Shown here: positions 37,646 to 38,879 of the stretch, one piece after another | Layout: every line of letters begins with the position of its first letter | How positions within the stretch are numbered: position 1 is the stretch's first letter | Origin: a virus | Lineage: Duplodnaviria > Heunggongvirae > Uroviricota > Caudoviricetes | Virus record (IMG/VR): IMGVR_UViG_2531839667_000017 | Location: 1-41,654 of that record | Strand: one strand, 5' to 3' | DNA: 41,654 nt | Program-made: the position numbers and the translations under genes | Notes under the pieces: generated by a model | Seen by the model: only the letters and a program-made list of their open reading frames with translations | The model's database searches: none | Told to the model about the DNA's origin: nothing

Positions 37646-38344
37646 ATGAAAAATATCCTACTGGCATCATTGTTAGTGGCATCGCCGGGTGCATTTGCAG
37701 CCAGCTTTGACTGCCAAAAGGCTTCGACAGCAATCGAACATAAAATCTGCGATAACGAACGTCTGTCAAAATTAGACGAACAGCTTAGCTCTGCCTATTC
37801 TAGTGCCCTCAAAGGAAACCCAGAGAACGCAGACACCCTAAAAATGGTTCAACGTCAGTGGGTAAATATGCGTGGAAAACTCACTGATAATAAGGCTCTG
37901 GAGCTGGCTTATCTTATCCAAATTAATGGCCTCAAAGGTTTGGGGAGTTCAGTCAGCGTAACAGCGGCCAATGACATACCCACGTCGGCGCAGAAACATT
38001 CTGAAGAGCAGGAAGAAACAAGTAAGGCAGAAGCTAAGTCGGTCAAGAACGGCAATGAGCTAACCTTAGAGTCATTCCGAGCTAAATATGTAGAAGTAGA
38101 TGGTGAGTATTACAGCACGACATCCATTCCTAGAGGCAGTTCGTTCTTGTTCACTTGCGCCAGTCGTATTGCTGATGACCAAGTGAATATTTGGAAGAAA
38201 CAGGCAGCCAAAGAGGGCAAAATCGACTTATTCTTTGAGGTTGAGAATCACTTACACACGGCTATGTTGAACGCCAATTTTCAGAAGTTGAATTCAGACC
38301 CTGCCAAAAGAGGTATTTGTAATCTGATTAACGCAGTGCCGTAA
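37646..38344 (+). CDS. secreted DUF1311 / LprI-like (lysozyme-inhibitor-like) protein
   Basis: 232 aa from ATG 37646 with GGAG SD; signal peptide MKNILLASLLVASPGAFA; N-terminal Cys pair and helical region typical of DUF1311; AT-rich. Confidence 0.6.
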   Translation: MKNILLASLLVASPGAFAASFDCQKASTAIEHKICDNERLSKLDEQLSSAYSSALKGNPENADTLKMVQRQWVNMRGKLTDNKALELAYLIQINGLKGLGSSVSVTAANDIPTSAQKHSEEQEETSKAEAKSVKNGNELTLESFRAKYVEVDGEYYSTTSIPRGSSFLFTCASRIADDQVNIWKKQAAKEGKIDLFFEVENHLHTAMLNANFQKLNSDPAKRGICNLINAVP

Positions 38345-38354
38345 GTAAATTTAG

Positions 38355-38383
38355 GGCCACAGTTGTGGCCTTAAATATTTTTT
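38355..38383 (+). terminator. intrinsic terminator after the DUF1311 gene
   Basis: GGCCAC-agtt-GTGGCC hairpin followed by a U-rich tract. Confidence 0.65.
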
Positions 38384-38579
38384 CAGCCTTTTCTTATTTG
38401 TAATAAGCAGTACTTGGTAGTGCTTATAAAACAGAATAAAAAACATATGACTTTGGCGATTACCCAGTAAAGATATTCGAAATAAATGTAAATATCGACA
38501 ATGAATAACTATCCTCGCACTCGCGGGGATTTCTTTTATCTGAACTCGCTACGGCGAGTTTTGTTTTATGGAGATGATT

Positions 38580-38879
38580 ATGGCCTGTTCAACATTCAAC
38601 CCTCTAACGTTACAGAAATACCAGCCAGCCCCTGAAGATTTATGCTCACTGTGTGGCGGAAATCATGGCAAAGCCGCCATGATCGAATGTAAGGACAAAA
38701 TCCACATTTGCCTTAATTGCGTTGATGTCCTCGTTGATATCAAAAATGAGAGAGAAGATAAAAAGCGTAGCGAGGCTGTTCGCGCCTTAGATTCATGGAT
38801 GCGAGATGGGTATAGTGCCGCGCAAATTTATGACTTAGCAATATCAAAAGGCGAAATACCAGGAGTGCGCATAGAATAA
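38580..38879 (+). CDS. hypothetical zinc-ribbon protein (99 aa)
   Basis: ATG 38580 with GGAG SD; CSLCGG...C..ICLNC Cys cluster; own downstream terminator. Confidence 0.5.
   Translation: MACSTFNPLTLQKYQPAPEDLCSLCGGNHGKAAMIECKDKIHICLNCVDVLVDIKNEREDKKRSEAVRALDSWMRDGYSAAQIYDLAISKGEIPGVRIE

Follow-up and report, generated by a model that had tools for sequence, protein, structure and literature searches.

Between the recombination genes and the xis-int pair of a lambda-like E. coli prophage lie two small genes, one for an exported protein of the LprI type and one for a zinc-ribbon protein, and the question that they raise is what each would do for the phage and whether they work together. The prophage was analysed in the whole of viral record IMGVR_UViG_2531839667_000017 of IMG/VR (41,654 nucleotides; here called the window), where its early-left (pL) operon lies on the + strand. 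Both open reading frames (ORFs) are real genes, correctly located, and both are fairly ordinary phage cargo. The first encodes a new two-domain member of the DUF1311/LprI family, already so named by RefSeq, whose anatomy and family assignment are secure. We suggest, tentatively and short of thinking it probable, that this protein would act in the periplasm as a binder and neutraliser of incoming peptidoglycan hydrolases, with its C-terminal domain as the specificity element. The parts of the first gene are as follows.

37609-37617, + strand: candidate extended -10 element TGCTATAGT, read from the sequence, with a predicted transcription start near 37624
37646-38344, + strand: LprI-like ORF of 232 amino acids (aa), whose protein starts MKNILLASLLVASPGAFA and continues ASFDC
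37646-37699, + strand: Sec-type signal peptide of 18 aa, MKNILLASLLVASPGAFA, with predicted cleavage after AFA
37700-37945, + strand: DUF1311/LprI-like helical N-terminal domain (N-domain), mature residues 1-82, with the motif FDCxKAxTxxExxIC and the cysteine pair C23/C35
37946-38080, + strand: low-complexity linker rich in S, E, K and T, predicted to be disordered (predicted local distance difference test, pLDDT, below 50; model residues 82-127)
38081-38344, + strand: uncharacterised C-terminal domain (C-domain), a beta-hairpin plus three helices, with cysteines C171 and C225 and then the stop codon
38349-38376 (stem), T-run to about 38386, + strand: intrinsic terminator of the LprI-like unit (free energy -17.6 kcal/mol, z-score -4.5)

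The initial annotation had remarked on a 232-aa ORF with an obvious Sec signal peptide, and the signal shows the expected features: K2 in its n-region, then a hydrophobic core of 13 residues and, at the cleavage site, the motif A-F-A. No second hydrophobic segment was found in the 232-aa protein. A Shine-Dalgarno sequence, GGAG, lies at 37637-37640, 5 nucleotides (nt) before the ATG. An alternative ATG at 37619 would give a 241-aa product and is used by many database entries (cluster P0001, 318 members), but this longer reading is unlikely, because the position of the Shine-Dalgarno sequence and the distant homologues, all of which start at MK, favour 232 aa, and because a transcript starting near 37624 would exclude the upstream ATG altogether. 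Signal peptides are conserved in the homologues, and in two of these, P0080 and P0083, a lipoprotein-type signal with an LTGC lipobox replaces the Sec signal before the same C-domain, an independent indication that the site of action is extracytoplasmic. Export by Sec, with cleavage predicted after AFA, is well supported, and the protein is probably disulfide-bonded in the periplasm. The Sec signal and the lipobox homologues agree with the earlier description of the product as periplasmic or secreted prophage cargo. Its AT-richness had also been pointed out; the gene is indeed lower in GC (44.5%) than the window (51%), but this is not specific to it, the neighbouring genes having 41–46%.

Assignment of the protein to DUF1311/LprI, proposed earlier from the sequence, is upheld by two lines of evidence. 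The Pfam family LprI (PF07007) matches residues 23-78 on profile positions 1-70 of 106 with 25.3 bits against a cut-off of 22 (E 2.1e-5), and, in a model of the mature protein made with AlphaFold, the N-domain has the small helical fold of that family and can be superposed on its solved structures. Mean pLDDT of the model is 64, with domain block means of about 65–84 (68–84 in the C-domain, falling to 49 at its last residues). Sequence searches of solved structures, with either the single 232-aa query or a family profile, gave nothing meaningful, and fold comparison alone recovered DUF1311. Four conserved cysteines are described for the domain in the LprI family (PMC7933661); here the domain holds only C23 and C35, while C171 and C225 belong to the separate C-domain. 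Identical copies carry the RefSeq name 'lysozyme inhibitor LprI family protein', and PHROGs holds a full-length family of the protein annotated as of unknown function.

Half of the protein belongs to a different, uncharacterised domain. A search of 1.84 billion proteins returned the C-domain in 12 cluster representatives, 2 of them spurious repeat proteins; the protein search gave no functional lead, and fold comparison of the C-domain gave no informative match. Nevertheless, C171 and C225 are conserved in nearly all aligned homologues, and comparison with a phage-plasmid allele (37646-38344 against L010:6001-6687) gave a ratio of nonsynonymous to synonymous divergence (dN/dS) of 0.15 overall and of 0.056 for the C-terminal 100 codons. 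Though rare, the C-domain is clearly functional and under strong purifying selection. The linker that joins it to the N-domain varies among homologues in both length and sequence. Synonymous divergence (dS) in the same comparison is very uneven, 0.33 in the first 100 codons and 1.58 in the last 100, which suggests that lambdoid and phage-plasmid alleles may have undergone intragenic recombination around the linker.

Relatives of the LprI-like protein occur in lambdoid prophages, phage-plasmids of ~110 kb, an integrase/AlpA island and lytic T4-like phages. The ~110-kb members are plasmid-sized contigs of Salmonella, Citrobacter, Enterobacter and E. coli that carry the gene among entirely different neighbours and that look like SSU5/pHCM2-type phage-plasmids. 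Lytic Aeromonas T4-like phages have full-length homologues at 26–31% identity, Klebsiella phage Marfa has a partial one covering 77% of the query, and RB49-like and Klebsiella T4-like phages have relatives that share the N-terminal half or more and end in different C-termini; ORF262 of RB49/Phi1, for instance, keeps the N-domain and changes to a different C-terminal half after about residue 140. In both Aeromonas phage 31 (L003:3834-4666) and Marfa (L013:2056-2814) the homologue is found in the interval from gene 61 (primase) to gene 56 (dCTPase). A 56-aa ORF overlaps the start of the homologue in phage 31, suggesting translational coupling. The two lipobox homologues come from the integrase/AlpA island, where one of them, P0083 (L009:8001-8999), stands immediately upstream of a gene for a TM2-domain membrane protein, a possible partner. 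This spread over lytic and temperate phages, phage-plasmids and an island fits a function in conflicts among phages.

Studies of other DUF1311 proteins indicate what such a function might be. Members bearing signal peptides are encoded beside lysozyme-like effectors of type VI secretion systems (T6SS) and are treated as immunity proteins (PMC9796082, PMC12135965), and E. coli is rescued from Etse4, an effector that acts in the periplasm, by Etsi4, itself a DUF1311 protein (PMC12981562). We propose that the LprI-like protein would bind and neutralise a peptidoglycan hydrolase entering the periplasm from outside, the candidate targets being a muramidase delivered by a T6SS or the lysozyme on the tail of a superinfecting phage. 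The C-domain would probably supply target specificity, and the carrying cell would be protected, as it is by T4 Spackle or by T6SS immunity proteins. The initial annotation had named protection of the lysogen envelope as one possibility; the function cannot be specific to lysogens, as strictly lytic T4-like phages carry homologues. Both lifestyles would be served by excluding superinfecting phages or by guarding against lysis-from-without.

A number of observations weigh against this proposal. It had been stated that DUF1311 proteins include lysozyme inhibitors, and this is overstated: in Mycobacterium tuberculosis (Mtb) LprI a separate MliC domain was reported to be sufficient for lysozyme resistance (PMC7933661), the periplasmic LprI-domain protein ScwA of Salmonella gives no lysozyme protection and instead raises the levels of MltD (PMC7933661), and lysozyme inhibition has not been tied by assay to the DUF1311 domain as such. 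None of the demonstrated inhibitor domains (MliC PF09864, Ivy, PliG) was found in the window protein, PF07007 being its sole Pfam match at E <= 1. The match to that profile is partial (70 of 106 positions), the second cysteine pair is missing, and the structure model is of moderate quality only (mean pLDDT as above). In addition, PADLOC returned no defence-system match for either of the two proteins or their neighbours.

The example of ScwA also suggests a different reading, in which the LprI-like protein acts on the cell-wall machinery of its own host, binding or stabilising an endogenous lytic transglycosylase or other periplasmic enzyme, and so adjusts the remodelling of the envelope or the timing of lysis as the phage develops, with no foreign enzyme being blocked. 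Among periplasmic LprI-domain proteins of enterobacteria, ScwA alone has been studied experimentally (PMC7933661); it depends on disulfides, raises MltD, causes lysis on overproduction and leaves lysozyme sensitivity unaffected (PMC7933661). The window protein is likewise predicted to be soluble and periplasmic and has paired cysteines, and a role in lytic growth would suit the lytic T4-like carriers. However, the architecture of ScwA differs, its LprI domain being C-terminal (residues 185-271 of 275), ScwA was not among the homologues recovered, and the LprI-like gene shows no tie to a lysis cassette, travelling independently of late genes. We regard action on host enzymes as possible but unlikely.

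A further reading dispenses with hydrolases: the protein would be a surface or periplasmic exclusion factor that, in the manner of Sim, Cor and Llp, blocks DNA entry or masks either a receptor or part of a transport system, the DUF1311-like domain serving merely as a stable periplasmic scaffold. The joining of the T4-like N-domain to different C-terminal domains suggests a generic module with a variable specificity domain, and the presence of the gene in many kinds of mobile element is also in keeping with exclusion. Nothing speaks for it directly, though: the protein has no similarity to a known exclusion protein, no PADLOC match and, in this allele, no membrane anchor. This reading seems to us distinctly unlikely.

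For the proposed neutralisation of incoming hydrolases, the system that offers itself as a model is T4 Spackle (Sp, gp61.3), a periplasmic inhibitor of the gp5 tail lysozyme. Its gene (orf 61.3) lies in what we take to be the same hyperplastic 61-56 region of T4 in which phage 31 and Marfa encode LprI-like homologues. Homologues of Sp occur in 904 phage records. Here too the evidence is partly adverse. A tblastn search with T4 Sp gave no match in the window or in the loci of Aeromonas phage 31 and Phi1, the sole match being the sp-like gene of Marfa; Marfa thus carries both a Spackle-like and an LprI-like gene, so that the two are not simple substitutes, and a substitution of one for the other that would appear as anti-correlation is unsupported. 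Synteny between genes 61 and 56 is itself weak evidence, given that the region is hyperplastic.

If the protein does block incoming muramidases, it would be a second, structurally unrelated solution to the problem that Spackle solves; the retention of one gene family by lytic phages, temperate phages and phage-plasmids alike would be explained; and the DUF1311 fold, for all its 'lysozyme inhibitor' label, would for the first time have a defined biochemical role. If it does not, the result still bears on annotation, the RefSeq name resting on a partial match to a domain never shown to be inhibitory.

We turn to how the gene is carried. In the proposed arrangement, the first cassette (about 37600-38386) would be a moron-like unit made up of candidate promoter, Shine-Dalgarno sequence, gene and intrinsic terminator. 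The suggestion in the initial annotation that the gene stands alone agrees with this, the LprI-like gene looking self-contained with its own terminator and candidate promoter. The computed terminator (stem and T-run) overlaps the hairpin noted before at 38355-38383, and it is kept in the phage-plasmid alleles. Upstream, the 50 nt before the coding sequence (-50 to -1) are identical at 44 of 50 positions to the SSU5/pHCM2-like phage-plasmid alleles, against 83% identity in the coding sequence; similarity stops abruptly upstream of this block. The block, which includes the candidate -10 element TGCTATAGT, is more conserved than synonymous positions in the neighbouring part of the gene (dS 0.33). 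These features are consistent with promoter activity of the gene's own. Against it, a simple two-hexamer consensus scan called no promoter at the LprI-like gene, and the conservation of the block could reflect a recently shared 5' segment. With a candidate promoter of its own and an orientation in sense with the N-antiterminated pL operon, the cassette may be transcribed both from the repressed prophage and in lytic growth.

An IS21-family element (33271-35072, - strand) lies inside the pL operon, between the N-side genes and recT, and encodes an IstA of 340 aa (rve and helix-turn-helix domains) and an IstB of 260 aa (PF01695, E 1e-111). The element runs opposite to the operon and may exert polarity on the genes from recT to int. 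A PADLOC 'DrmD' match to its IstB probably reflects only the shared IstB-type ATPase. As the element interrupts the operon upstream of the LprI-like gene, an internal promoter would be all the more relevant in this prophage.

The surrounding genes and signals, outside the LprI-like unit, are listed here in order.

31533-31877, + strand: N-type antiterminator, pL operon
35197-36108, + strand: RecT, pL operon
36086-36574, + strand: Gp157/Gam-like protein, pL operon
36586-36900, + strand: small helix-turn-helix protein, pL operon
37060-37515, + strand: Ea22-like protein, pL operon
38450-38505 (approximate placement), + strand: 3' remnant of an ASCH-domain gene (933W L0064-like), ~55 nt, where similarity to 933W begins
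38511-38530 and 38542-38561 (to 38566), + strand: two tandem terminator-like hairpins, each followed by a T-run (z-score -4.4), corresponding to the predicted lambda terminators t3 and t4
38580-38879, + strand: 99-aa C4 zinc-ribbon protein (933W L0063, Sf6 gp19, phrog_3680), with the ribbon at residues ~20-57 followed by two predicted helices
38880-38930, + strand: 3' remnant of lambda orf55 (lambdap35), its last 51 nt, including a TGA in the t5 hairpin loop
38920-38939 (stem), T-run to 38945, + strand: intrinsic terminator just upstream of xis, corresponding to the predicted lambda terminator t5
38970-39188, + strand: lambda-type xis
39166-40236, + strand: lambda-type int, overlapping the end of xis
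from 40371: host ybhC, after int

The lysis genes of the prophage, a T4-lysozyme-type endolysin (20219-20716, PF00959, E 2e-45) and an Rz spanin (19785-20234), are both on the - strand. Should the endolysin be of the signal-anchor-release type, exported ahead of lysis, it would be a conceivable target for a periplasmic inhibitor.

In lambda the order of this region is ea22, ea8.5, the tandem hairpins t3/t4, orf55 (lambdap35), t5 overlapping the orf55 stop codon, and xis; in the window it is the Ea22-like gene, the LprI-like gene, the same hairpins, the zinc-ribbon gene, the orf55 remnant, the same terminator and xis. The hairpins have been predicted as lambda terminators t3, t4 and t5 (Bloch et al. 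2014, PMC4195576). Judged by order and flanking sequence, the region is the lambdoid exo-xis region, with the LprI-like gene in the ea8.5 position and the zinc-ribbon gene in that of orf55: both belong to the stretch of the pL operon that separates the recombination genes from xis, and the lambda t3/t4 and t5 elements are their flanking signals. The earlier placing of accessory cargo between recombination genes and xis-int matches the known exo-xis region of lambda. No homology of either gene to ea8.5 or orf55 was found, save for the 51-nt orf55 remnant, and a relationship of the zinc-ribbon protein to Ea8.5 was rejected (BLASTP E 0.17). A portion of orf55 near xis has been noted in 933W also (Donaldson 2021, PMC8614690). 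Matches to the ASCH remnant in other genomes fall under genes annotated as ASCH-domain proteins, and the two remnants mark junctions of past cassette replacement.

The tandem hairpins directly upstream of the zinc-ribbon gene, which had been overlooked before, appear in very many genomes. They are nearly invariant among the window, E. coli strains A25 and 13P477T, 933W and Sf6, with two base differences in lambda, and the ~80-nt element that contains them (38499-38578) occurs in 316 phage records, among them those of lambda, HK022, 933W, Sf6 and P22-like Salmonella phages. It may act as a terminator, as an attenuator or just as a linker for recombination. The element carries the Shine-Dalgarno sequence and start region of whatever gene comes next, and that gene varies by phage: orf55, the zinc-ribbon gene or others. 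The hairpins were considered as a small RNA gene and set aside, no conserved promoter preceding them and both having been predicted already as terminators in lambda; Rfam gave no known RNA family in 36500-40400 at E <= 1. On the far side of the zinc-ribbon gene, the second terminator reported earlier (38921-38943) coincides with the computed t5 stem and T-run, and homology between phages with different xis/int modules stops right after that T-run. Fixed, terminator-bounded slots that exchange unrelated small genes offer a practical guide to further cargo.

Such slots also bear on the earlier pairing of the two genes. Among 5,426 complete E. coli genomes, 124 carry the LprI-like gene, 316 carry the zinc-ribbon gene and just 12 have both side by side, indicating that the pairing is incidental and that each gene occupies its own recombination slot. 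(A query covering 38200-38879 matched ~2,300 of these genomes, most of them evidently through the t3/t4 element.) Functional linkage, such as that of a secreted effector with its cytoplasmic regulator or chaperone, would be consistent with the 12 genomes, in which both genes are nearly identical, neighbouring and in the same orientation; but such neighbours are found in only 12 of the 124 genomes with the LprI-like gene and in 12 of the 316 with the zinc-ribbon gene, three terminator-like hairpins and gene remnants separate the genes, and each occurs without the other elsewhere. Thus 933W and Sf6 have the zinc-ribbon gene without the LprI-like gene, a 13P477T-type prophage at ybhC has the LprI-like gene followed by a 55-aa orf55-type gene and no zinc-ribbon gene, and phage-plasmids and T4-like phages have the LprI-like gene alone of the two. 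The zinc-ribbon gene is found, moreover, upstream of three different integration modules (lambda, 933W and Sf6). On this distribution a functional pairing is rejected as highly improbable, and the adjacency is a by-product of mosaic recombination and cassette exchange in terminator-bounded slots.

What, then, is the zinc-ribbon protein? The gene is an uncharacterised exo-xis gene known since 933W and Sf6, being 933W L0063, VT2-Sakai H0073 and Sf6 gene 19, and its family is narrow, confined to E. coli/Shigella lambdoid and P22-like phages and one Hafnia phage (31% identity). The cysteine cluster reported for this 99-aa ORF comprises four residues, C22, C25, C44 and C47, that are invariant in the family alignment, the Hafnia homologue included, and have the spacing CxxC-x18-CxxC; C37 is not conserved. 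The Pfam zinc-binding domain (ZBD) of ClpX, PF06689, was matched by 7 of 7 family members tested (best E 0.0064), and a family profile run against the PDB had ClpX as all six of its best matches (best E 0.0023). "ClpX-ZBD-like zinc ribbon" is a reasonable name, as a description rather than an established homology. The C-terminal ~35 residues (RALDSWMRD.YSAAQIYD.AISKGEIPGVRIE) recur in P0069, a metagenomic protein of 96 aa with a completely different, cysteine-free N-terminus, which suggests shuffling of sub-genic modules among exo-xis proteins.

The second cassette (38511-38945) would thus place a cytoplasmic ClpX-ZBD-like zinc-ribbon protein in the lambda orf55 slot, and as its gene is bracketed by t3/t4 and t5, the protein is most likely made, like Xis and Int, from antiterminated pL transcripts only. 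A small protein that binds and modulates a host factor would be in line with other exo-xis proteins. One specific version is that the protein mimics the ClpX N-terminal domain, pairing with that of ClpX or competing for its clients and adaptors (SspB, lambda O-type proteins), and so shifts ClpXP proteolysis during induction, when it would be co-expressed with xis and int. The shared C4 spacing and motifs (CSxCG ... ICxxCV(D/E)L..(D/E)I), the PF06689 match in every member, the six ClpX structures and the terminator-bracketed slot directly upstream of xis all point that way. But no match exceeds a curated cut-off in Pfam or NCBIfam, which weighs against a ClpX kinship: PF06689 gives the window protein 15.7 bits against 27 (E 0.014), the NCBIfam ClpX models give E 0.002–0.004, far below their cut-offs, and E values span 0.002–0.05 in all. 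Convergence is easy for short C4 ribbons, AlphaFold gave no usable model (pLDDT 50, from a shallow alignment), and literature searches on L0063, H0073 and ClpX-type zinc-finger phage proteins found nothing relevant. Mimicry of ClpX is, we think, improbable.

The broadest picture would join the two proposals: a new mobile class of periplasmic superinfection-exclusion or immunity factor, carried by lambdoid prophages, SSU5/pHCM2-like phage-plasmids, islands and lytic T4-like phages, whose C-domain neutralises tail lysozymes or T6SS muramidases as a Spackle analogue of unrelated fold, accompanied here by a 99-aa ClpX-ZBD mimic that retunes ClpXP during induction. That everything in it should be right together is unlikely.

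Compared with known systems, the LprI-like protein stands closest to DUF1311/LprI (PF07007), a family that includes the solved structures 3GI7 (P. putida PP0307) and 6AR7, Etsi4, the Pantoea orphan T6SS immunity proteins, ScwA and Mtb LprI. It differs in matching the first two-thirds of the profile, in lacking the second conserved cysteine pair and, relative to Mtb LprI, the MliC domain, and in being joined by a disordered linker to a C-terminal domain that is rare and unrelated; unlike the T6SS-linked members, its gene is carried by phages and other mobile elements and adjoins no T6SS effector. With T4 Spackle it shares being a small, cysteine-containing, helical phage protein predicted to be exported by Sec. 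Its homologues in T4-like phages lie between genes 61 and 56, presumably the place of sp, though this region is hyperplastic and Marfa has both genes. Sequence similarity is undetectable, and no match of fold was obtained. The zinc-ribbon protein resembles the N-terminal zinc-binding domain of ClpX (PF06689; PDB 1OVX, 2DS5-8) in its CxxC-x18-CxxC spacing and several flanking residues, and departs from ClpX in standing alone at 99 aa with no AAA+ module and with unrelated C-terminal helices.

As to their setting, the two genes occupy the same slots, with the same t3/t4/t5 flanks, as lambda ea8.5 and orf55, the non-essential, pL-transcribed genes studied in the Wegrzyn and Donaldson laboratories, but the occupants are unrelated: Ea8.5 is a cytoplasmic homeodomain/zinc-finger hybrid and Orf55 a 55-aa alpha/beta protein, neither of them exported. 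Phage morons are cargo units of promoter, gene and terminator, such as lambda bor and lom or HK97 gp15. The LprI-like gene lies in sense in the early-left operon, so that, unlike a moron, it does not depend on its own candidate promoter; it shares with morons a terminator of its own, that candidate promoter, a non-essential location, a GC content below the phage average and boundaries at mosaic junctions.

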